Assembly: GCA_049511835.1 (NCBI GenBank)
Contig: JBEKXN010000003.1
Span: forward strand, 33,248 to 97,247
Reading direction: 5' to 3'
Origin: Verrucomicrobiota bacterium
Lineage (GTDB): Bacteria > Verrucomicrobiota > Verrucomicrobiia > Limisphaerales > UBA11358
Length of the DNA: 64,000 nt
This document shows positions 19,893-48,302 of the stretch, piece after piece; the stretch's first letter is position 1; every line of letters begins with the position of its first letter. A program made the translations under genes and the position numbers. The notes under the pieces were generated by a model that ran no database searches, was not told the DNA's origin, and saw nothing but the letters and a program-made list of their open reading frames with translations.

Positions 19893-19929
19893 TTGACATC
19901 AGCGAATGTTGCCACTATTGTTGCCACTA
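19893..19929 (+). promoter_or_regulatory. Integrase promoter overlapped by tandem 11-bp repeats (putative arm-type sites)
   Basis: TTGACA(19893)-N17-TATTGT(19916); TGTTGCCACTA at 19907 and 19919. Confidence 0.65.
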
Positions 19930-19950
19930 GAATTATACGAAAGGCACAAT

Positions 19951-21105
19951 ATGGCATCGCTCCGCAAAAAAGACCGCTCGCCGTTCTGGTTCGCGTGCTA
20001 CACGCTCCCCGATGGCCGTCGCACGCAACGCAGCACCGGCACACCCGACAAGCGCAAGGCTTTGGGCCTCGCCCTCAAATATGAGGATGCCTCCCGCGAA
20101 GCTGTCGCCGGTCGCTTCATCGAATCGCGGGCACGGAGAGTTATCGCAGACATCTACGCGCTTGCCAATACCGAAGTGCTTCCCAATTCGTCCACCAGCG
20201 CATTTTTGAAAACATGGCTTGACCGTAAATCGCTAGAAGCCGACGACGCCACCCACCAACGCTATACGGGTGTCATAACCCAATTCATCGAACACATCGG
20301 ACACAAGGCCAACGCCGACATCAAGAAAATCACGCCGACCGATGTTGCTGGTTTCCGCGACGCCGCCGCGCAGCGGCTTGCCGTCAGTTCGGCCAATTTG
20401 ATGCTGAAAATTCTCCGTTCCGCCTTTGCCGCCGCCCGCCGCGAAGGATTGATGGACGACAACCCCGCCGAGCGCGTGACCATCCTGAAGCAGCGGAAAA
20501 ACTTTGAACGCCGCCCGTTCACGCTGCCCGAACTGAAGCGGCTCATGGAACTGGCGGATAAAGAATGGCGCGGCATGATTCTTTTCGGCCTTTACACCGG
20601 CCAGCGGTTGGGCGACATCGCCACGCTTACGCGGACGAACCTTGACCTCACCAAGCAAGAAATCCGCCTGACCACCGGCAAGACCGGCAGACGGCAGCTT
20701 CTGCCGCTCTCCGCGCCGTTGCTTGACTACGTTAAAAAATTGCCCGCCAATGATGCGCCAGACGCGCCGCTTTTTCCGAACGCGCACGCGACGGTGCAGC
20801 GGCAAGGCCGCGCTGGAAACTTGAGCAACCAGTTTCATAAACTGCTTGTTGCTGCCGGACTTGCCGAGAAGCGCAGTCACCACAGCACCGGCAAAGGCCG
20901 CGATGCTTCGCGCGAACAAAACGAAATCAGTTTTCATTCGCTGCGGCACACGGCTACCACCCTGCTTAAAGCTGCTGGTGTATCGGACGCCATAACGCGG
21001 GAGTTCATCGGCCACGACTCGCCCACTGTGTCCAAACAATACACGCATATTCCCACCGACACCTTGCGGCGGGCCGCGAACAAGCTGCCAAACATTCTCA
21101 AATGA
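19951..21105 (+). CDS. Tyrosine recombinase/integrase
   Basis: YTGQRLGD (R), FHSLRH (HxxR), IGH, QYTH (Y); N-terminal arm-binding-like region. Confidence 0.95.
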   Translation: MASLRKKDRSPFWFACYTLPDGRRTQRSTGTPDKRKALGLALKYEDASREAVAGRFIESRARRVIADIYALANTEVLPNSSTSAFLKTWLDRKSLEADDATHQRYTGVITQFIEHIGHKANADIKKITPTDVAGFRDAAAQRLAVSSANLMLKILRSAFAAARREGLMDDNPAERVTILKQRKNFERRPFTLPELKRLMELADKEWRGMILFGLYTGQRLGDIATLTRTNLDLTKQEIRLTTGKTGRRQLLPLSAPLLDYVKKLPANDAPDAPLFPNAHATVQRQGRAGNLSNQFHKLLVAAGLAEKRSHHSTGKGRDASREQNEISFHSLRHTATTLLKAAGVSDAITREFIGHDSPTVSKQYTHIPTDTLRRAANKLPNILK

Positions 21106-21260: not shown

Positions 21261-21364
21261 TGCTTCCGCCTGCGGTTTGGCGACGGACGTTACGCTCCGG
21301 CTCCGTTCCTGCGTCTCTGCGCCTGCGCTCCACTTTCCCGTTCGCCAAACCGCAGGCCGAAGCA
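21261..21364. repeat. Stem-loop enclosing 31-bp motif, copy 1
   Basis: 15-bp IR 21269-21283/21342-21356 around TCCGGCTCCGTTCCTGCGTCTCTGCGCCTGC (21296-21326), identical to 45991-46021. Confidence 0.8.
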
Positions 21365-22985: not shown

Positions 22986-23291
22986 ATGCAATCCTGGCAA
23001 ATAAAAGCACTTGAACTTGAAGAATCCGCATTGAAATACCTGGATGGAATCATTGCCGGTCATCCGCTATACGCCTCGTTCGGTTTTGTCTGTTTATTTA
23101 TGGCATTGGGCCTCGGCCTGATTTTGCTGCTAATCAGGGGACGAAAAAATCTAAAGGGAAAATCCTATGTCCCGCCAGTCATCATATACATGTCGGAACC
23201 GCCGCCGCCACCGCCCGACACGTTCGATCCATTTCCACCGCCGCACCACCATTCGATACCTTACGATGACAATAGTGATGAGTATCAATGA
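22986..23291 (+). CDS. Hypothetical membrane protein with Pro-rich tail
   Basis: GGAGG RBS; single TM helix; PPPPPP tail. Confidence 0.6.
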   Translation: MQSWQIKALELEESALKYLDGIIAGHPLYASFGFVCLFMALGLGLILLLIRGRKNLKGKSYVPPVIIYMSEPPPPPPDTFDPFPPPHHHSIPYDDNSDEYQ

Positions 23292-23315
23292 CGCCATTGT
23301 GAAGTGTTGGCACAC

Positions 23316-23537
23316 TCATTTAACAGATTCGGGAGCGATTGACGGACATAGCCGCAGGAAGACCTGCTTGCCACATTGGCCGACGCTCAAATCGTCGCAC
23401 CAGAAAACCCGGTCGCCTTCAATAGCTTCAATCTCGCGGATAAACAAGCCGTTGCGATGCAAATAACGGCCACCCACTTTTAGGTCACTTCCTTTAAGAT
23501 GCGAAAGTGCCGGTGCAGCTAATGTTTTTTCAGACAT
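23316..23537 (-). CDS. Hypothetical protein
   Basis: 73-aa ORF, plausible composition (LKVGGRY..REIEAIEGDRVFW). Confidence 0.5.
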   Translation of the reverse strand: MSEKTLAAPALSHLKGSDLKVGGRYLHRNGLFIREIEAIEGDRVFWCDDLSVGQCGKQVFLRLCPSIAPESVK

Positions 23538-23628
23538 CGGGATTCTTTGTTGATTTTACCGACAGATAAACCTATGCGCCATCAATCAGAATGTTGCAAC
23601 CCTTAAAATCAATCATTGCTTGGCGGCT

Positions 23629-23985
23629 CTAATTCAAAGCTGGTTCTGATTGTGGCGTGGTGGATTTCGTTTCCGTCACCACAATTTCCCGAATCTTCGG
23701 CTGGTTTTCAGCAATGAGCGAATGATATTTCTCCGGGAGTTTCATGATGCCAGATAGTTCCAGCCGCCAGACCGCCGTTTCAATGCGCTGCAAAACGTGG
23801 CCGGAAATCAAAATTTCATGCGTGGCAAAAACCAGACGCAGTTTTTGTTCCTTACCATCACTGTCCAGATCAGCAAAAACGAATTGATCCAGCGGCAGCA
23901 CGAGCCAGCGGGTTGCCGTCATTTGAACGCGCAGACAGCGCGCCTGTGAATCAGTGGTGTAACATTCGGGCGCTTTGGTGTTCAT
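23629..23985 (-). CDS. Hypothetical protein downstream of relaxase (paralog of 50059-50454)
   Basis: Overlaps relaxase stop; shared pattern with 50059 ORF. Confidence 0.65.
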   Translation of the reverse strand: MNTKAPECYTTDSQARCLRVQMTATRWLVLPLDQFVFADLDSDGKEQKLRLVFATHEILISGHVLQRIETAVWRLELSGIMKLPEKYHSLIAENQPKIREIVVTETKSTTPQSEPALN

Positions 23986-26761
23986 GTTTTTGTCCTGGTT
24001 GAGAATGACGCCGGGATTGTTTCAATCGGCAAAACGTATCGGCGGCATGTCGGCCAAACCGCAGGAGACAGCCATGCAGCCGGTCCCAAAACGGATTGTG
24101 ATTGAGCGGACGCAGACCACCGGCAAATTCCAACGCCAGCGGCCTGTGGCCGGAACGCGCCAGATTCTCGCGCAACTGCTCCTTGTCCGGTGTAAAAATG
24201 CGGACGCCACGCCGTCCGCGCGAAATGGTGACATACCATTGTTGCGCGTTCGTCGCGGCCTTGATGGTGGAATCGGAAAAGAGAACGTAATCCACCGTCT
24301 TGCCCTGTGAACCGTAGGACGTGACGGCGTAGCCGGGAAGAAATTCCCGAAAACTTTTGCCCAGAACACGGCCGTCGGTTAATTCAATGGTTCCATTGGA
24401 GTGAACTGATTTGACGGCGACCAATTCGCCGTTGGTGACGCGAGCGCCGGAGGCCAGCTTGCGATTGGCCTTGAGATGCAGTTTATCGCCTTGCGCGACC
24501 GGAATTTCGCGCGGCAGGCAAACAGTGATTTTATCCAGCACCTTGTTTGAAACCAAAACATCTTTTCCGTTAATCTCGACAAAGATGCCACATTCACGGA
24601 TTGCCGTCAGTTTTCCGCGCATCCCCGGTTCGGCTTGCCGCACTTTCTGATTGAACACAATCACCGCGTCTTGCGGATAAAATCTTTTGTCGCGCTTTTG
24701 CGCGTTGGTTAAATCTATTTTGTCCAATGCCCGAACGATGACATCATTTGCACCGAGCAATCCCTTTCCTTTAAGGCCATCACGCACCTTTGAATTGACG
24801 CGATGCACTTCCGCCCAGGTCTGCGATACCACCACGGCGGAAGCCTTTTCTTCCATGAGCCGAACATACTCATTGGCCAGCTTGTCCGCCTGCTCACCCA
24901 AGCCGCAGGAAACCACCGCGCCCATTTTGTCCAGCCGTTCAAACGATTCGGCCAGTTTGCCAGCGGCGGCAACTTCAACGGCCTTGCGATACTGTTTGAT
25001 CTTGGAACTTTCTTTTTTACTGCGGCCAAGTGCGGGGTCTTGGCGGCGAATCGTGTGAAGTTCGACCGGCTTGACGCCGGAATATCGTTCAATGGCCAGC
25101 AGCGCATCCGATGCCTCGACCGCTCCATGCTGGCGCGTGTCGCCCGACAAAATCACCCGCGCTTTTCGCTCCCGCGCCAGCCGGAGCAGTTCAGACATTT
25201 GGCGACCACCAATCTGCCCGGCCTCGTCCACGACGATAACCGTGCCTTCGACCAGTTCATGTTTGAGCAAAAAACTTGTCACTGTCGTTGGCGACGGAAA
25301 GCCGTCCCGCTCCATGCTGACAACCTGCTGGCGTTGCGGCGCGAGCACAACCACGCTTTTGCCGGATTGCCGGACCTGCTCGACCAGCTCGCCCAGGACA
25401 AAACTTTTGCCTGTGCCCGCGCCGCCACGGAATAGCGAAACCGCATTGGTGGAATGCAGCAGCGAATCCAAAGCCAGACGTTGCTCGTCATCCAGTTTTG
25501 GATCTGCCGTATAGGAATGTTCCATCAGTGGCCTGCAATTGCTCGTGCCGTCCTTGACGGTCTGGACAATTTCCATTTCCCGCAACAGCACTTCACGCAA
25601 TGTCACTTCGACAGGACGCTCCGAATTGCGGAGGTAAGGACGCGAGCGCGTGAACTCTTTGAGTTCATCCACGGAGAAGTTTTCCCCGCGTCCCCGTTCC
25701 AATGCCTGCTGCCACAATTGACATTCCAGCGCGACCGAGTTGCGGTCAAACAGATGATCCTCAGCCCATTGGACGGACTCACCGACGCTCATTCGGTTGC
25801 CAGTGGCTTTTCCCAAACGATTCGGAAGCTCGCGCAAGGCGGCGCGCTCGCTTTCACTCAACTGCACATCCCATAACGCCCGTTGCTCGTCATGGCTCAA
25901 TTCTTTCTGTTTGCGCGCCCGCTCCGTCGTAGCAGTCAACTCGCGCATGTCCATCAAATCGCCACCCACGCATTCCGGCTTTTCTGCCAGCAACTTTTTA
26001 ATGGCCTCGTCAATCTGCGTATGCCGCTTGGAAAAGCGTTCACAAATGTCATCCGAAATGCCCTCGATTTGAAAATCCCCACGCGCCCGGTTGTGAATCC
26101 CATAACCGAACCCGCGCAGCTTGCGGGCGAGTTCATGGTAATAGACGTTCTCGGCAAATTTCCGCGCCCGGAGGAGTTCATAATTTTGCAGCGCCTTCCA
26201 GCGATTTTCGACGGCATCAAACGTCGCGTTGAAGACGATACAATGGGTATGCAAATGCGGGTCCAGGGCGCGGGACGTATCATGCGTGAACGTGGCGGCG
26301 ACAAAATTGCCGGTGGAGCGGTCACAGTCCGCCTTGCCGATCCGAACCCGCGTTGTGGCAAATGCCTCAAATTCCCTCATCGCCGAACGGACGGCCTGGG
26401 CATGGGCTTCCAAAATCCGTTCATCCGCGCCGACCAATGCGGCGACCGAAACCGATTTGGGCGGCGAGAAAGTGAAATCGTAAAAAATCCGGCGATTGGT
26501 GGCGTTGCCCCCGGCCTTATCCATCCGCATGGTATTCAGGCGTGGCGTCAATGTGTCGCCCGAAGCCGGATGCAGGTTCTCGCAGAGACGCAGAAAGGCT
26601 TCCGCGCCGACTTTGCCAGACAGACCGAGCCGTTCTGCACCCAGGCCGAACCACTGGCCTGTCACCCGCTGCCCTTCATCATAATAATCCCCCACGCAAA
26701 GATGTTCCTCAAAGTATTCCTTTGCGTTCTTCAAATTGTATTGCGTCTTGGCCGTGACCAT
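23951..26761 (-). CDS. MOBF (TrwC-type) relaxase-helicase
   Basis: N-terminal DYY, DFTFSPPKSVS, HDTSRALDPHLHTH (HUH), helicase GGAGTGKS, VDEAGQ, YAVTSYGSQGKT. Confidence 0.95.
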   Translation of the reverse strand: MVTAKTQYNLKNAKEYFEEHLCVGDYYDEGQRVTGQWFGLGAERLGLSGKVGAEAFLRLCENLHPASGDTLTPRLNTMRMDKAGGNATNRRIFYDFTFSPPKSVSVAALVGADERILEAHAQAVRSAMREFEAFATTRVRIGKADCDRSTGNFVAATFTHDTSRALDPHLHTHCIVFNATFDAVENRWKALQNYELLRARKFAENVYYHELARKLRGFGYGIHNRARGDFQIEGISDDICERFSKRHTQIDEAIKKLLAEKPECVGGDLMDMRELTATTERARKQKELSHDEQRALWDVQLSESERAALRELPNRLGKATGNRMSVGESVQWAEDHLFDRNSVALECQLWQQALERGRGENFSVDELKEFTRSRPYLRNSERPVEVTLREVLLREMEIVQTVKDGTSNCRPLMEHSYTADPKLDDEQRLALDSLLHSTNAVSLFRGGAGTGKSFVLGELVEQVRQSGKSVVVLAPQRQQVVSMERDGFPSPTTVTSFLLKHELVEGTVIVVDEAGQIGGRQMSELLRLARERKARVILSGDTRQHGAVEASDALLAIERYSGVKPVELHTIRRQDPALGRSKKESSKIKQYRKAVEVAAAGKLAESFERLDKMGAVVSCGLGEQADKLANEYVRLMEEKASAVVVSQTWAEVHRVNSKVRDGLKGKGLLGANDVIVRALDKIDLTNAQKRDKRFYPQDAVIVFNQKVRQAEPGMRGKLTAIRECGIFVEINGKDVLVSNKVLDKITVCLPREIPVAQGDKLHLKANRKLASGARVTNGELVAVKSVHSNGTIELTDGRVLGKSFREFLPGYAVTSYGSQGKTVDYVLFSDSTIKAATNAQQWYVTISRGRRGVRIFTPDKEQLRENLARSGHRPLALEFAGGLRPLNHNPFWDRLHGCLLRFGRHAADTFCRLKQSRRHSQPGQKHEHQSARMLHH

Positions 26762-26793
26762 CGGGAATGAGTCTGCCAAAAGGCCGGTTCCAT

Positions 26794-26816
26794 TTTGTTC
26801 CAAAATGGAACAAAGC
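26794..26816. promoter_or_regulatory. Palindromic operator-like site, copy 1
   Basis: TTTGTTCC-AAAAT-GGAACAAAGC, identical to 49233-49255; lies between divergent relaxase and 26846 genes. Confidence 0.65.
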
Positions 26817-26845
26817 AACCGGCGGAAACTGGTTCACTGGGAGGC

Positions 26846-27344: not shown

Positions 27345-27550
27345 AATGAATTTTTTAACAATGCACGCCCTACCCCTTCCAAGGGGAAGGATTCTGCGCT
27401 TCGCGCATTGCCCCGCCAATGCGGTGTCAGCCGCCAACAAACACGCGCACATTCGTGCTTCGCATCATGCCAACAAGGTTGCTTCGTCAAGTGCCTCGCC
27501 AACTGCTTCGCTTGCCGCCAACCCTGTCGCCCCGCTCATGCTTCGTCACC
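27345..27550. other. Candidate oriT / stbS-like repeat region
   Basis: Between relaxase and traK-like gene; IR CGCATTG/CAATGCG (27404-27423); TGCTTCG at 27456, 27480, 27504, 27539; nic site not identified. Confidence 0.35.
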
Positions 27551-42986: not shown

Positions 42987-44132
42987 GTGAAACAAATAAT
43001 TCTTTTATTTTTATCACTGCTTGGATTGCAGGAAATGGTGCAGGCACAAGGGCAATTGCAAATTCCAGACAGTTTGCAATTAAACATCGCCTTCTCCCCG
43101 CTTCCAAATTCTCCAGGCACCAATCAGCTTTCCGGCAACGCCGGTTATTTCAAAAACGGTTGGAATTATGATGCCCATGCTCCCGCGACGAATGTGTTTT
43201 CTGTGGTAATCAATCTTGGCACGAACCAAGCCACAGCGGGTTGGATTCTCCAAATGGAAAACGATGGGTTCTCGCCGGTAATGCAGCTTACCAACGAAAT
43301 TTACAACAGCGTTGCCATCCCAATCATCCCCGGCAGCACGGTTGGAACTTCCGGTATCGTGGGGACGTTTCCGGGTTCCGGCGCTGATTTAATTTCGCCC
43401 AATTATTATTCACAAAGCTGGCAGCTTACGCCCAACCAAATTCAAAATCTTCAGGCCGGGAAATGGTATGCGGAAGTGGATTATGGCGACGATAAATATA
43501 TTGGCAATCTGACGCCTGTGCCATCAAGTGTATGGCCACCAAAAGCGGTAATCTCAGTCTCACCAATGACCATATTGCCTACTGGAATAGGTTCGTTTCC
43601 GGGACAGATCACAACCTCGGTAGTGGTTGCACCTGACAACAACCAGCCTGCAACTGTGGTGTTTGACGGTTCTGAATCAACTGATCCCTATTATCTTCCG
43701 CTGCAATTTCTGTGGCAGGACGGAATCAATTTTTCGGCCACAACAGCAACGACGACCAATGAAATGCAAAGAGGCTCGCATCAAATTTCGCTTGAAGTGA
43801 ACGACGGCTACAATTCAGACACAGCGTATTTTACATTGGAGGTTGTTTCGCCGGGAGAAGCTGTGACTAAATTGGCCTTGATGGTGCAGCAATCTAATTT
43901 GAGCAAAGCGAGGAAATCCTTTTTTGCCTTGATTCTGTCGCAGGCACGAAATTCATTTGACCGCAACAATACTATTTCGGGAGTTAACCAATTAAAAATG
44001 TTCCAAAACCAGATTCGCTTGCAAATCATGCGAACTGAAAATGCAGCGGCAAATTGGTTGATTGAGGGTGCTCAAGAAATTATTGACGCCGTTGGAAAAC
44101 AGCCGAATCGCCATCCTGTTTTTCGTTTTTAA
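42987..44132 (+). CDS. Secreted CHRD + PKD-like + helical C-terminal domain protein
   Basis: Signal peptide; LTPNQIQNLQAGKWYAEV (CHRD-like); VVFDGSESTDP..ISLEVNDG (PKD-like). Confidence 0.6.
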   Translation: MKQIILLFLSLLGLQEMVQAQGQLQIPDSLQLNIAFSPLPNSPGTNQLSGNAGYFKNGWNYDAHAPATNVFSVVINLGTNQATAGWILQMENDGFSPVMQLTNEIYNSVAIPIIPGSTVGTSGIVGTFPGSGADLISPNYYSQSWQLTPNQIQNLQAGKWYAEVDYGDDKYIGNLTPVPSSVWPPKAVISVSPMTILPTGIGSFPGQITTSVVVAPDNNQPATVVFDGSESTDPYYLPLQFLWQDGINFSATTATTTNEMQRGSHQISLEVNDGYNSDTAYFTLEVVSPGEAVTKLALMVQQSNLSKARKSFFALILSQARNSFDRNNTISGVNQLKMFQNQIRLQIMRTENAAANWLIEGAQEIIDAVGKQPNRHPVFRF

Positions 44133-44150
44133 CATTCAGAGAAAAGACCA

Positions 44151-44786
44151 ATGAAATTATTTGCTAAAAAGTTGCCTTTCTTCATGCTGTCCGCCGTGCA
44201 AAATCAAGCAACGGCATTCACCTTAACGATTGCATTTATTGCGGGCACACTGACATTCACAGCGCGAGCCGATGAGCGGATGTCGCAAGTCCAAACGGCA
44301 TTGGGTTCAACGACCCTCAGCGGCTTTGTTCGGTCTGGCTTTACACTTTATCCGCCGCCAAACGCTTCCAGCACCCGAAGCAGAATTCTTTGGGGGCAGC
44401 ATCAATTTGAATTTCCCCGCTTTCAAAATACTGAAAATCCATCTTTAACGCCGCTGCCACCGCCGTTACTTGATGAAAACGCGCTTTTCCAATCTTCATC
44501 CTTCGTCCTGGCATTGGTGGATACGCCAGTGCAGCCAGTCGCACCGCCGTTAGCAGCAGATTCATCCACGGTAGGCGCGGCGATGCTGGAAACGATTCAC
44601 ATGAACGAGGCAATCGAGCCTTTACAGCTTCCCATCGCGCCCCCGCCAAATTTTCAAATTCAGCTTAATCAGGCGGGAATACAACCTGTTCCAGAACCTT
44701 CCATATTTGTGCTTGGCAGCTTGGCTTTTGGATTGATTGCGTTAACGGGCTTGAATAAAGGCTGGCGAATTGTAAGACAATTGTAA
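44151..44786 (+). CDS. PEP-CTERM protein
   Basis: Signal region; VPEPSIFVLGSLAFGLIAL + basic tail. Confidence 0.8.
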   Translation: MKLFAKKLPFFMLSAVQNQATAFTLTIAFIAGTLTFTARADERMSQVQTALGSTTLSGFVRSGFTLYPPPNASSTRSRILWGQHQFEFPRFQNTENPSLTPLPPPLLDENALFQSSSFVLALVDTPVQPVAPPLAADSSTVGAAMLETIHMNEAIEPLQLPIAPPPNFQIQLNQAGIQPVPEPSIFVLGSLAFGLIALTGLNKGWRIVRQL

Positions 44787-44999
44787 TACAATTGGGTGTG
44801 TAGCTTGTGAGAACAAAAATTTGTAAAATAAATCGCATTTTGCTCGGAATCGCATAAGTTTAGTGCATAACCAAATGGCAATTAGGTATGGGAAGAATGC
44901 GGATTTTGGGCGGACCTTTTGAAACATTAGGTTAATCGTCCATCACGCGGGGATGGACGTTCGGGCGGGCACGCTGAAAACACCAGTTGATTTGCCGAC

Positions 45000-45836
45000 A
45001 TGCCGAAACTTCGTATAAAACGGTTTTTTTACCGTAACGGCCGCGTCCACGCGGAGGTTAGGGAGGTGGGAGGGGAATTTCACGGTCTGAACCGCACCTG
45101 GCACCATAACGGCCAACTGGCCGAGGAATTGCGCTACCGCCACGGTCAGTTACACGGCACCAGCCGCCAATGGAATGAGAAGGGACTGTTGCTCGGTTCT
45201 TTCACCATGAACCACGGCACCGGCAGGCAATACTACTGGCATCAAAACGGAAAATTGCGGCTGGAGATAAATTCACTGAACGGCAAATTTTGGGGGCGCA
45301 ACCGGACTTGGCTGCGAGACGGCACGCTGGTTCAGGAAATTTACTACATTAGCAACGTGGACGTAACCCGCGCCGCCTACTTGAAAGCGGCACGCAGGTA
45401 TCCTGACTGGCCGCAACACGCAGGGGAACCGGCGGGAAAAGTGGCGCGAGACAACCGCGCCTTGGAACTGCGGCAGCATGAATTGTTCATTGAATCCCTC
45501 CTGGAAAAATCCCATGCCGAAGCCAGGCATTGGTTGACCACGGCCAAAAATCCCGATCTCCGTTCGCTCGCAAGGTTTCGCACGGCAAAAGCGGCGCTGC
45601 GATTTGTGGAAACGCTATACGCTGCCGGTGCGGAAACCGTCATTGCCACCCTCATTTACGCGGGCAGACGCGGAAAACAATTTGCCGACCGGCTGTTGGT
45701 CAAACTACCGAAAGCACCGGCAAAACGGAAATTGCTGCGAAAGATTTGTCAGGAATTGTGTGCCAAGCGAGGCGGCGCATTTTTGCCGGACGAGAAGGAC
45801 ATGGGGGAGAGCCACCTGTTTATACTTCTGGAATAA
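45000..45836 (+). CDS. MORN-variant repeat (YwqK-like antitoxin) protein
   Basis: Repeated WHHNGQLAEE..Y.HGQLHG / WHQNGKLRLE. Confidence 0.75.
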   Translation: MPKLRIKRFFYRNGRVHAEVREVGGEFHGLNRTWHHNGQLAEELRYRHGQLHGTSRQWNEKGLLLGSFTMNHGTGRQYYWHQNGKLRLEINSLNGKFWGRNRTWLRDGTLVQEIYYISNVDVTRAAYLKAARRYPDWPQHAGEPAGKVARDNRALELRQHELFIESLLEKSHAEARHWLTTAKNPDLRSLARFRTAKAALRFVETLYAAGAETVIATLIYAGRRGKQFADRLLVKLPKAPAKRKLLRKICQELCAKRGGAFLPDEKDMGESHLFILLE

Positions 45837-45843
45837 AGCCGCC

Positions 45844-46056
45844 GGGACCAACGGGCGGGAACTGACACGGCGGCCTCGCTAATATCGCTCCGGCCCGCCT
45901 TCCGTCATTTCCCGCCCGCTCGTCCCTTGTGCAGAATGTTGAAAACGCAGGGGCGTTCGCTTCCGTCAACGCTCGGTGGCGGTGTTCCGTTCCGGCTCCG
46001 TTCCTGCGTCTCTGCGCCTGCACTTCACATCCTTCCCCCGACCGCTGACCGAAGCG
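45844..46056. repeat. Two intergenic stem-loops including 31-bp motif copy 2
   Basis: cgggcgggaa/ttcccgcccg IR (45852/45909); motif 45991-46021 within imperfect arms 45971-45983/46041-46055. Confidence 0.75.
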
Positions 46057-46136
46057 GCTTCAATTTTCCGTAGTGGAGCCGCCACTTCATCGGCAATCCA
46101 CCATTCCAACCTATACACCAGGATGCTGCCCGCTTT

Positions 46137-46281
46137 CGCAGCGATGAAAAGGCGGGGCGATTATATGGCTTGGGCGGAAACGTCAAGGATACTACGGGTC
46201 GTGGCTTCCGTTCCTCCTTGACCTTTCCGCCCAAGCCAAAGCCCTGCCTTTAGGTTTTCATCGCGCACACCTGTCGCTGCG
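46137..46281. promoter_or_regulatory. Large hairpin, candidate ssDNA (Frpo-type) promoter for the DUF932 operon
   Basis: 23-bp stem (1 mismatch) 46167-46189/46215-46237, 11-bp outer stem, gcgatgaaaa/ttttcatcgc; minus strand TTGACG-N15-TATAAT with TATAAT in the internal loop. Confidence 0.55.
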
Positions 46282-46323
46282 CGTGCAAAGAAAACATTAA
46301 CAATGAAAGAGAAAGGCAAATAT

Positions 46324-47166
46324 ATGTTCACTACATCAACACCGTCCGTCCGTCGCGCTGAACTGGCCGACGACCAAATCCGCGTGCTTGCGCCGTCCGT
46401 GTTTGCAGCTTCGCCGCTGCCGGACGTGAGCGAGCGTTATGCGTTCGTTCCCACCGGGCAAATCGTTTCGCGGTTGCGTGAATCCGGCTGGTCTCCGGTT
46501 CAGGCTTCCGAACAGACCGTGAGGCTCGATAACCGGCGCGGTTTTCAAAAACACCTGCTCCGTTTTCAACGCAACGAGGCGCAGCCTGTCGCCGGTGAAT
46601 TTTCGCCGGAACTGGTTTTAATCAATTCGCATGACCGTTCCAGCGCGTATCAGTTGCACGCCGGTTTGTTCCGGTTCGTTTGCGGCAACGGCATGATTAT
46701 CGCCGATGCAACTTTCGAGCGCGTCAGCATCCGGCACAGCGGCTTCACGCCGGATGAAGTGATTGATGCCAGCTTCAAATTGCTGGAACACGTTCCGGCC
46801 ATCACCGCCCGCGTGGAGGCTTTCAAACAACGTCAGCTCGACAATACCGAGGTTGCCACCTTTGCTGAAGCCGCCTTGCGGTTGCGGTTTGAGGACGCCG
46901 CCAAAGCTCCCATCAATCCGCAAAAACTTCTGGACTGTCGCCGCAGTGAAGACGCCGGCAACGATCTTTGGCACGTCTTCAATCGCGTTCAGGAGCATTT
47001 GATTCGCGGCGGGCAACGCGACTGGTCGCGCCGCCGTGAGGACGGACACCGTTTCCCACGCACCCGCGCCATTTCCGGCCTCGACCAAAACATCCGCTTG
47101 AACCGCGAGCTTTGGAATCTCGCCGAACGGGTTGCCAATCACGAGGCAATCGTTCTGGCCGAGTAG
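46324..47166 (+). CDS. DUF932 (DUF945)-family protein
   Basis: SERYAFVPT..FQKHLLRF..ELVLINSHDRSSAYQLHAGLFRFVCGNG..LNRELWNLAE. Confidence 0.88.
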   Translation: MFTTSTPSVRRAELADDQIRVLAPSVFAASPLPDVSERYAFVPTGQIVSRLRESGWSPVQASEQTVRLDNRRGFQKHLLRFQRNEAQPVAGEFSPELVLINSHDRSSAYQLHAGLFRFVCGNGMIIADATFERVSIRHSGFTPDEVIDASFKLLEHVPAITARVEAFKQRQLDNTEVATFAEAALRLRFEDAAKAPINPQKLLDCRRSEDAGNDLWHVFNRVQEHLIRGGQRDWSRRREDGHRFPRTRAISGLDQNIRLNRELWNLAERVANHEAIVLAE

Positions 47167-47226
47167 TGAACAACGGGCGTTCCCGTCGCAAGGCAGGGAC
47201 GCCCAAATTTCTACCACATCAAAATT

Positions 47227-47418
47227 ATGAATATCAAAAAGCACCACATCCGCGAATCCCACGAACGCCAATTCAACGGGGAGGATTATCAACAGGTTGC
47301 ATACGACATTTGGGCGGGCATCTCCAATGCCACGGAGGACGATTATCTCGCGCTCTGCGCTGGTCCAGACCCCGGATGCGACTGCGGATTTTGCGCCAAC
47401 GCCAAATGGAGGGACTAA
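47227..47418 (+). CDS. Small hypothetical protein with C-terminal Cys cluster
   Basis: 63 aa, GCDCGFC; its TAA abuts next ATG. Confidence 0.55.
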   Translation: MNIKKHHIRESHERQFNGEDYQQVAYDIWAGISNATEDDYLALCAGPDPGCDCGFCANAKWRD

Positions 47419-48012
47419 ATGAATACTACCACCATAGAATCCGCCCGCATCGTCACCCACTGGCGGAGATTTTCCAGCGGCCTTTGGCGCGTGCCCGAAG
47501 GCGACATCGCCGCCGCCTATTGCGCGGACACGTTTCCCAAAATCAGCGTGTTCACGCATGAGGGGCGTTTGTTCACCAACTGCGGCTGCAATTATTCCAA
47601 ATACCTTGCCGCCGAAGTCAATTGTTACCCGCTCGTCCCGCCCGACGAATATCGCGGCGCGGAGAACGTCCCGTATTCGTATGAGGGGCGCGAAGCGGCC
47701 TACAAGGGCAAAGTTTTCAAACTCGGCGCAAAAGTTCTTTTTGTCGCATCCGACCCGACCCTTGAGGAATGGCGGCACTTGTGCCGCGTCCTGTATGCCG
47801 ATGGCGGATATTTCGCCTCCGGTTGCACCTACACGGAATTTGTCGGCAACCGTTTCGATCCGCAGTCGGAGAACGGCCGCGCCGCGCGGTTCAAGGAACT
47901 CACGGAATGCGGCGCACGGGCAATGCCCCGGACGCAGGAGGAAATGCGCGGGTTGCTGGCAGGTGAATCCGCCCCTGAAAACCAACCCCAACAAATTGAC
48001 TTCGCGTTATGA
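47419..48012 (+). CDS. Hypothetical protein
   Basis: GGAGG RBS; 197 aa; ATGA overlap with next gene. Confidence 0.65.
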   Translation: MNTTTIESARIVTHWRRFSSGLWRVPEGDIAAAYCADTFPKISVFTHEGRLFTNCGCNYSKYLAAEVNCYPLVPPDEYRGAENVPYSYEGREAAYKGKVFKLGAKVLFVASDPTLEEWRHLCRVLYADGGYFASGCTYTEFVGNRFDPQSENGRAARFKELTECGARAMPRTQEEMRGLLAGESAPENQPQQIDFAL

Positions 48013-48302
48013 CACCGATTACCAAAACCATCCGGCGCGTGACGCTTGGAACCTACGGTTATGGAAAACACGCCCGCAAATTGGTTGCCGCGTTTGAGCG
48101 GGGCGACCTAATCAGCATCCGCGCGTTTGACTGCCGCACCAAAGACACCGCCCGAATCTACGATGTCCTTTGGTGGATGAAGCGCAGCAAGGCCGAAAAA
48201 ATTCGCATGGAGAAATTGCGCGAACGCAAATCGGCAAAAACGGCGCGACTGGCCACGCGGCGGCAGCGCGCTGCCACGCGGCGGTTGTTCAAAGAACAAT
48301 GA
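48009..48302 (+). CDS. Basic hypothetical protein
   Basis: 97 aa, Arg/Lys-rich C-terminal helix. Confidence 0.6.
   Translation: MTPITKTIRRVTLGTYGYGKHARKLVAAFERGDLISIRAFDCRTKDTARIYDVLWWMKRSKAEKIRMEKLRERKSAKTARLATRRQRAATRRLFKEQ

Follow-up and report, generated by a model that had tools for sequence, protein, structure and literature searches.

A candidate single-stranded-DNA promoter hairpin facing a DUF932 gene in a Verrucomicrobiota integrative and conjugative element

The hairpin and its promoter geometry

The window analyzed here is a 64,000-nucleotide (nt) stretch of a Verrucomicrobiota genome (assembly GCA_049511835.1, contig JBEKXN010000003.1, positions 33,248 to 97,247). It holds a block with a TrwC relaxase, a type IV coupling protein (T4CP), an integrase, and type IV secretion system (T4SS) genes resembling VirB2, VirB4, VirB6, and VirB10, which together mark it as a conjugative element (integrative and conjugative element, ICE). 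Between a MORN protein gene and a gene of the DUF932 family, this ICE carries a long hairpin with promoter-like hexamers in one arm. The hairpin, the genes behind it, and the strand on which it would fold are the subject of this article, and coordinates are collected in Table 1.

An initial annotation of the window had described a hairpin of about 125 nt ending some 45 nt before the DUF932 ribosome-binding site. The measured values are 124 nt and 47 nt, counted to the GAAAGG Shine-Dalgarno sequence. Folded as single-stranded DNA (ssDNA), the minus strand reached −55.9 kcal/mol (z = −8.1), with none of 200 shuffles as good, and the plus strand reached −52.1 kcal/mol (z = −6.2). The minus-strand arm reads TTGACG-N15-TATAAT and matches 11 of 12 consensus hexamer positions. 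Its TATAAT is unpaired in the minimum-energy fold, where it faces AAGCCC (plus strand, 46239-46244). The plus-strand arm reads TTGACC-N15-AAGCCC and thus has no −10. In sequence and in fold, the hairpin agrees with the annotation.

On the minus strand the hexamers lie in the 3′ arm, and the 5′ arm, which runs into the DUF932 template, is the template, so transcription from the folded strand would run rightward. Re-deriving the geometry therefore led to the same orientation that the annotation had proposed, with the folded minus strand facing DUF932. The predicted start, near 46252, follows from a distance rule (12 to 13 template nt past the spacer) and from a conserved CCTA.

Conventional elements were sought as well. 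No sigma70 promoter with 16 to 18 bp spacing was found in 45700-46400 on either strand, no intrinsic terminator was called at the hairpin, and no T-run follows it. An Rfam scan of 44000-48000 returned only sub-threshold microRNA-like matches, as any long hairpin yields. Cruciform extrusion in duplex DNA was rejected on general grounds; the palindromes are imperfect, with centers of 25 to 60 nt.

Table 1. Positions of the hairpin elements, genes, and related features (window coordinates unless a genome and contig are given)
Feature	Position	Strand	Description
Whole hairpin	46141-46264	−	124 nt; lower stem, −10 internal loop, 24-bp upper stem, 25-nt apical loop
Lower stem	46141-46150 × 46255-46264		10/10 complementary
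Upper stem	46166-46189 × 46215-46238		24 nt, 96% complementary (inverted repeat search)
−35 hexamer TTGACG	46181-46186	−	Base-paired within upper stem
15-nt spacer	46166-46180	−	Fully paired; length fixed, sequence varies, pairs covary
−10 hexamer TATAAT	46160-46165	−	Non-template arm, unpaired in internal loop
Template arm	46215-46254	−	46215-46238 partners −35 and spacer; then pyrimidine-rich stretch facing −10; then CCTA
Template CCTA (plus-strand TAGG)	46251-46254		Near end of template arm
Predicted transcription start	46252	+	RNA would begin 5′-AGGUUUUCAUCG
Leader mini-hairpin CGCGCA-N10-TGCGCG	46262-46283	+	At base of the large hairpin; conserved in all DUF932-type loci
DUF932 gene	46324-47166	+	Pfam PF06067, E = 6e-45; Shine-Dalgarno GAAAGG 46311-46316
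Three small genes (63, 197, 97 amino acids)	47227-48302	+	Co-oriented; complete the presumed operon with DUF932
ClpB-like AAA+ gene	After the three small genes	−	Convergent
VirB2/B4/B6/B10-like T4SS operon	49.3-59.6 kb	+	
MORN protein gene	45000-45836	+	Upstream of hairpin
H1 hairpin	45844-45926		Conserved, upstream of promoter hairpin
H2 hairpin	~45958-46060		31-nt conserved loop motif 45991-46021 = CCGGCTCCGTTCCTGCGTCTCTGCGCCTGC
Further H2 copies	21261-21364; G000 C3:176442-176464, C7:12058-12086, C7:12960-12990, C7:53795-53902		
Cargo genes	Between T4CP and MORN genes		Include a response regulator and a 2138-amino-acid SpvB/TcdB/RHS protein
Accessory gene with iterons, ParA-like ATPase, T4CP (trwB-like)	27.4-30.5 kb	+	
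Candidate oriT inverted repeat CCTTCC-aagg-GGAAGG	27378-27393		Between divergent TrwC and accessory/ParA/T4CP operons
Conserved block CCCCTTCCAAGGGGAAGGATTCTGCGCT	27373-27400		Holds the 6-bp inverted repeat
Palindrome TTTGTTCCAAAATGGAACAAAG	26794-26816; also 49233 region		At relaxase promoter
TrwC-type (MOBF) relaxase-helicase	23951-26818	−	Pfam TrwC, E = 4.5e-81; sense strand carries hairpin hexamers
Tyrosine integrase	19906-21105	+	
Class II hairpins	G000 C28:42464-42583, C14:530-645; G011 C4:320689-320804; G034 C1:18053-18169		TTGACG or TTGATG, TATCAT

The hairpin family and the genes behind it

The DNA of the hairpin matches three paralogous places in the same genome. The strict pattern TTGA[CA]N-N15-TA[TC]AAT occurs 10 times in the 3.8 Mb, and eight of these occurrences lie in hairpins of the same architecture with quite different stems. 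Across the eight paralogues, 86.8% of the proposed-pair cells were paired, compared with 32 to 41% when the partner was slid. Both sides had changed in 14 of the 24 upper-stem pairs, while TTGAC and TAYAAT stayed the same throughout.

A covariance model built from these eight paralogous hairpins scored the window's hairpin at 107.3 bits on the hexamer (minus) strand versus 34.7 bits on the plus strand. With this model, 14 copies were detected in this genome; 29 of 61 related genomes contained about 120 between them, spread over five of the 25 genera of the order, and 150 other genomes of the phylum contained 0. In an alignment of 50 matches fitted to the model, which includes eight weak reverse-strand matches, 87.1% of cells were paired (33 to 43% when slid) and 28 of 32 pairs showed double changes. 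Because the family combines strong covariation with invariant hexamers, the hairpin is, judged by sequence comparison, far beyond chance, and it belongs to a conserved and apparently undescribed family.

The promoter elements are the constant part of this family. Among the 42 aligned members, the −35 columns hold T42 T42 G41 A41 C34 and the −10 columns T40 A41 Y A37 A41 T42, with a nearly gap-free spacer of 15 alignment columns between them. The near-invariant −11A and −7T are the positions that sigma70 reads as flipped-out single-stranded bases. In every member, TAYAAT faces a pyrimidine-rich, noncomplementary stretch, and the stems on both flanks pair. The template CCTA is present in 39 to 40 of the 42, about 13 nt from the upper stem, where +1 is expected. 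Since the flanking stems pair and covary while the −10 is never paired, the −10 bubble looks selected rather than an accident of divergence.

The linkage to DUF932 is equally regular. All 10 DUF932 homologue loci with upstream sequence, which come from other metagenome-assembled genomes and encode proteins of 59 to 93% identity, carry the hairpin. It ends 35 to 50 nt before the gene, has its hexamers on the strand opposite the gene, and is followed by the shared leader CGCACACCTGTCGCTGCGCG and by GAAAGG-N7-ATG. The annotation had asked for conservation of the bubble and the hexamers in homologues. Hexamers, spacing, and bubble are kept in all 10 of these loci and in 42 of 42 aligned members, and comparison thus lends strong support to its core idea. 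As judged by comparison, a promoter that would exist only in folded ssDNA and face DUF932 is well supported.

With respect to the gene itself, the longest DUF932 open reading frame (ORF) begins at 46303, where the in-frame ATG is not conserved. The only ATG that homologues share is the one at 46324, preceded by GAAAGG at a distance of 7 nt; this places the true start there, and the gene should be annotated from 46324. Pfam and PHROGs searches of the 63-, 197-, and 97-amino-acid proteins gave no informative matches.

Other members of the family stand before other genes. In most of the window's subfamily (CGATG-type), a co-oriented ORF follows within 30 to 120 nt, either a MORN gene or a homologue of the 197- or 97-amino-acid proteins. 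In a second subfamily, with lower stem GCGCG, 36 nt separate the hairpin from the stop codon of a convergent XRE-type repressor gene, and a co-oriented response regulator follows after about 700 nt. Examples are loci L006, L009, and L032 (G000 C28:~50.6 kb, C26:~53.2 kb; G034), where the repressor is of the XRE/Cro type and where one single strand could express the response regulator and not the repressor.

These comparisons bear on two explanations in which the hairpin would act outside ssDNA. The annotation had offered, as an alternative, an ordinary duplex promoter on the minus strand for a leftward structured RNA of about 300 nt containing the 31-nt motif. The 11 of 12 consensus positions would suit such a promoter, as would the conserved H1 and H2 hairpins to its left. 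Its RNA, however, would begin beyond the hairpin and leave the covarying far arm and lower stem unexplained. The 15-bp spacer, fixed across the family, falls outside the 16 to 18 bp scan range and is poor for a duplex promoter, and other subfamilies have the end of a protein gene on the left and no H1 or H2. We thus regard this alternative, which the data do not support, as extremely improbable.

A processing, stability, or attenuation element acting at the RNA level in a MORN-DUF932 read-through transcript, with incidental antisense hexamers, is in our judgment very unlikely. The hairpin does sit between co-oriented genes, its plus strand also folds well (z = −6.2), and the A·C mismatches, which would be G·U in plus-sense RNA, slightly exceed G·T (56 versus 37). 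Such an element would nevertheless leave unexplained why TTGAC and TAYAAT are the top conserved blocks, at a fixed 15-nt spacing and on the antisense strand, why the −10 is always unpaired, and why CCTA stands at the predicted start. It also lacks a T-run after the hairpin and an Rfam match, and other family members follow convergent genes, where a read-through mRNA of this kind does not exist.

The explanation that we favor, and hold to be somewhat more probable than all others combined, is a compact Frpo-like ssDNA promoter on a Verrucomicrobiota ICE, possibly also a primer site. Once single-stranded, presumably in the recipient, the ICE's minus strand would fold at 46141-46264 into the hairpin, whose 24-bp upper stem would offer TTGACG as a duplex −35. 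The TATAAT lies 15 nt on, in the non-template arm and in a permanently open bubble, and would mimic an already melted promoter. Host RNA polymerase with a sigma70-type factor would bind and initiate at the template CCTA (~46252, plus strand), open the 10-bp lower stem, and follow the single-stranded template into DUF932 and the three small genes. Once the complementary strand is made, the hairpin would be gone and the duplex would have no rightward −10, so that expression would switch itself off after a transient burst. The RNA may also prime complementary-strand synthesis, as with Frpo.

Transfer polarity and the folded strand

The proposal depends on which strand is transferred. Nearly all ICE genes (integrase, accessory/ParA/T4CP, cargo, DUF932, and T4SS) are templated by the minus strand; the TrwC operon is an exception, as are a few small genes on the minus strand, among them that of the AAA+ ATPase. 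In F-like elements, the reported arrangement is likewise that nearly all genes are templated by one strand (PMC11541004). TrwC relaxase genes number at least seven in the 3.8-Mb genome, which also has three near-complete paralogous ICEs of this type; two of these share a contig (C3), where they lie in opposite orientation.

In the three paralogous ICEs, the sole conserved noncoding block between TrwC and the accessory gene holds an oriT-like inverted repeat with 6-bp arms and a 4-nt loop. Its arms covary in relatives (CCTTGC/GCAAGG and CCTTGT/ACAAGG), which argues that the repeat is real. Lineage-specific iterons follow the block CCCCTTCCAAGGGGAAGGATTCTGCGCT: TGCTTCG here, TGCTGCG and TGCTAAC in the paralogues. 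The block is likely the oriT, with specificity-swapped sites for the accessory protein. A location downstream of the TrwC operon, where H2 or class II hairpins always occur, was rejected as the oriT; nothing positive was found in 23200-24050, and the divergent intergenic repeat was the better candidate.

To define orientation across the family, 85 hairpins in nine genomes were tabulated against TrwC genes, and 39 had a TrwC within 40 kb on the same contig. This table, together with other observations, weighs against a promoter on the incoming strand. All 31 of the hairpins 5′ of TrwC, which lie 0.9 to 38 kb from it, have their hexamers on its sense strand and are directed away from the gene, and none of those 5′ of TrwC in the nine genomes has the opposite orientation. 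In F and R388, the transferred strand is the relaxase template strand; by the rule that the relaxase enters last, the hairpin would therefore lie on the non-transferred strand. Four weaker hairpins, termed class II, occupy the other strand 175 to 875 nt past the TrwC operon's 3′ end; these also fire outward, running into a convergent integrase operon, so that not all copies can be on one transferred strand. The window's hairpin is about 19 kb from the oriT candidate and holds no classical leading position. On the plus strand, the sequence 3′ of the oriT-like repeat, (A/T)TTCTGCG, is similar to the flank in a distant subfamily and can be likened to the R388 flank ATTGTCT, which mildly favors a plus-strand nick. 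The map of R388 reads oriT-trwA-trwB-trwC, with trwA and trwB transcribed away from oriT; compared with it, the position of TrwC on the left argues for plus-strand transfer. In two paralogous ICEs (ICE-B and ICE-C), the hairpin is followed by the 3′ end of the convergent AAA+ gene with no ORF between, and one of the two has a decayed −10, TATCCT. Duplex promoters have longer spacers than the 15 nt seen here, a caveat that the annotation had raised. The wobble-pair strand test showed no G·T preference among stem mismatches on the hexamer strand (G·T 37 versus A·C 56) and so favored neither strand. Finally, the hairpin resembles neither Frpo/ssi nor any plasmid in sequence.

Some of these points have counterparts. 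The minus-strand 3′ flank of the repeat, GGTNNN-GC(G/T)T(G/A)C, resembles the AGAATA-GCGTCC of a closer subfamily; the two flanks point opposite ways, and the nicked strand is therefore not readable from the sequence. On the R388 map, the accessory/ParA/T4CP operon, on the right and transcribed away from the repeat, argues for minus-strand transfer. The annotation's caveat that canonical MOBF polarity predicts transfer of the plus strand is consequently fair with regard to the TrwC side, but weaker than stated, as the T4CP operon lies on the other side and the R388 map cuts both ways.

The orientation rule leaves two possibilities: either transfer in this MOBF ICE family involves, relative to the relaxase gene, the other strand than in the F/R388 convention, or the hairpin promoters work on the retained strand. 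In the second, which we consider unlikely, the plus strand would be transferred and the same hairpin promoter would fold on the strand retained in the donor as TrwC unwinds it, firing along the unwinding. It might prime replacement-strand synthesis or switch genes on only in actively transferring donors. The class II hairpins would then prime the complementary strand in the recipient, giving a two-strand system that fires outward around oriT. Such a scheme would place the relaxase on the side expected to enter last by the usual rule (PMC11541004). It would suit the plus-strand flank, with its likeness to the distant subfamily and R388, and the two paralogous ICEs that keep a hairpin with no downstream ORF. 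It would also account for the outward firing of all hairpins from TrwC, 31 on the 5′ side and four past the 3′ end on opposite strands, and for class II hairpins that fire antisense into the convergent integrase operon and so look like primers rather than mRNA promoters. However, we know of no retained-strand promoter, and copying of the retained strand normally begins immediately, from the 3′-OH of the nick. The incoming strand could then not template nearly all ICE genes, the minus-strand flank matches the closer subfamily, and the T4CP operon position favors minus-strand transfer. In F, moreover, DUF932 is expressed in the recipient (PMC9849209).

A different function for the same hairpin is that of a single-strand initiation site (sso/ssi-like), supplying mainly a primer for complementary-strand synthesis, with DUF932 transcription incidental. 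Frpo was discovered as a primer-RNA site, according to the account of Masai and Arai 1997 given in PMC11541004, and ssp1/Frpo transcripts prime conversion in vivo (bioRxiv 10.64898/2026.01.09.698686). The hairpins with no downstream ORF in ICE-B, ICE-C, and class II would fit, and in compact relatives the hairpin lies 0.9 to 5 kb from TrwC/oriT and fires away from it, which recalls the rolling-circle single-strand origins upstream of the nick. Most members of the window's subfamily nevertheless have a co-oriented ORF within 30 to 120 nt, and DUF932 is linked in all 10 loci with a conserved leader and Shine-Dalgarno sequence. As a sole explanation we therefore hold it to be improbable; the primer and promoter roles are compatible rather than exclusive.

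Returning to the promoter on the incoming strand, we consider the minus strand, which is the TrwC sense strand, to be the most likely transferred strand, and we hold this view with modest confidence. Three considerations favor it: the hairpin is kept under purifying selection across TrwC lineages that are only 37 to 90% identical, nearly all ICE genes are templated by the minus strand, and DUF932 is a recipient-side early gene in F.

Several further signals were observed around the ICE. The H2 loop motif CCGGCTCCGTTCCTGCGTCTCTGCGCCTGC sits on stems of differing sequence, and in the three paralogous ICEs H2 occurs in one fixed orientation, both beside the promoter hairpin and a short way past the TrwC operon on its 3′ side. 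The H2 loop is similar to the sequence that flanks the oriT-like repeat on the plus strand (TTCTGCG), and H2 could be another single-strand signal or a site for the relaxase or accessory protein. The H2 loop was also aligned with the block upstream of IncF Frpo1; the local alignment scored 46 to 55, versus 25 to 31 for the reverse strand, with a shared 10-mer CCTGCGCTCC, and was too weak to be used. The conserved core of the palindrome TTTGTTCCAAAATGGAACAAAG (GTTCCAaaaTGGAAC or GTTTCAtttTGAAAC) lies about 80 to 100 nt from the TrwC start in distant ICEs whose TrwC is only 37 to 40% identical, and the palindrome is likely the operator of a shared regulator. In ICE-C (G000 C7:53982-54259; L003 1480-1770), a window-type hairpin reduced to a truncated left arm precedes a complete hairpin whose stem is unrelated but which has a perfect TTGACG-N15-TATAAT, and the whole DUF932 operon is absent. 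The hairpins appear to be break points for module exchange.

Comparison with known single-stranded-DNA promoters

To our knowledge, the enterobacterial plasmids F, ColIb-P9, and pESBL are the only elements in which ssDNA promoters have been demonstrated. As we summarize the work on these three, such promoters time the first genes after entry and help the plasmid survive host defenses. If the proposal is true, the same kind of device, unrelated in sequence, has arisen in the ICEs of a largely uncultured environmental phylum. The small, clean hairpin (~124 nt, near-consensus hexamers, and a 6-nt pre-opened −10) would be a convenient minimal model for the reading of a hairpin by sigma70 holoenzyme, as well as a candidate self-silencing genetic timer. 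The presence of DUF932 behind both Frpo1 in F and the unrelated hairpin of the window would mark DUF932 as a deeply conserved early-entry function. Should the hairpin instead be read on the retained strand, it would be the first promoter specific to that strand.

Orientation-specific hairpins in displaced ssDNA that host RNA polymerase reads to make a primer are also known from ssoA-type origins and from sso1 of ICEBs1. By their placement, the ssoA-type single-strand origins direct synthesis away from the nick; they make short primers, are not tied to an ORF, and carry the motifs RSB and CS-6. The window's hairpin differs from them in that a conserved leader, a Shine-Dalgarno sequence, and a gene follow.

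The closest functional parallel lies in F. More than 5000 plasmid records match the DUF932 protein of the window at about 40% identity, and most of them are IncF plasmids of Enterobacteriaceae. In one IncF plasmid, the gene order is a large hairpin, a 98-amino-acid ORF, DUF932, an SLT gene, and oriT/traM, and the strand transferred in F folds there with z = −11.2. A search of this IncF Frpo1 homologue for sigma70-like hexamers gave no match of 8/12 or better. Unpaired bases at the −10 were reportedly found by Masai and Arai (1997) to be required for Frpo. Frpo1 (ssp1a) lies upstream of ygeA-ygeB in F and drives early expression from ssDNA in transconjugants (PMC9849209; bioRxiv 10.64898/2026.01.09.698686); by its position, ygeB would be the DUF932 gene.

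When 45935-46270, which covers H2 and the hairpin, was compared by blastn with 72,556 plasmids, nothing matched, Frpo/ssi included. With no sequence similarity to Frpo1/2 or ssi1-3, the hairpin is not a member of class 1 and would represent a new class. The literature distinguishes three sequence-unrelated classes of ssDNA promoter in enterobacterial plasmids (PMC12672017) and proposes candidates more widely (PMC11541004). Class 2 (ardA, klcA) and class 3 (M.EcoGIX) of pESBL and ssp2 of F are likewise hairpin promoters with a rebuilt −35 and −10 that form sequence-unrelated, independent classes, and their start sites were confirmed by 5′ rapid amplification of cDNA ends (PMC12672017; bioRxiv 10.64898/2026.01.09.698686). 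They are enterobacterial, experimentally tested, and located in mapped leading regions, whereas the window's family is predicted and belongs to another phylum and an ICE family.

The likeness to class 1, which comprises Frpo1 (ssp1a) and Frpo2 (ssp1b) of F and ssi1-3 of ColIb-P9/pESBL, is one of architecture. In both cases, a hairpin in one strand of a conjugative element rebuilds a −35 and −10, the downstream genes are templated by the folded strand itself, and the promoter is off once the DNA is double-stranded, although for the window's hairpin this is a prediction. The host is a Verrucomicrobiota ICE here and an enterobacterial plasmid there. Compared with F, the hexamers of the window lie on the opposite strand, the relaxase sense strand, and the oriT candidate is distant. 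Frpo1 is also larger, with a ~330-nt hairpin in the 471-nt stretch folded from the IncF homologue, versus ~124 nt here, and the window's hairpin is distinguished from class 1 by its near-consensus hexamers, fixed 15-nt spacer, and clean 6-nt −10 bubble. With Frpo1 it shares a downstream DUF932 gene, whose IncF protein is ~40% identical, and a possible primer role. We therefore predict that this hairpin family constitutes a fourth, compact, and non-enterobacterial class of ssDNA promoter.

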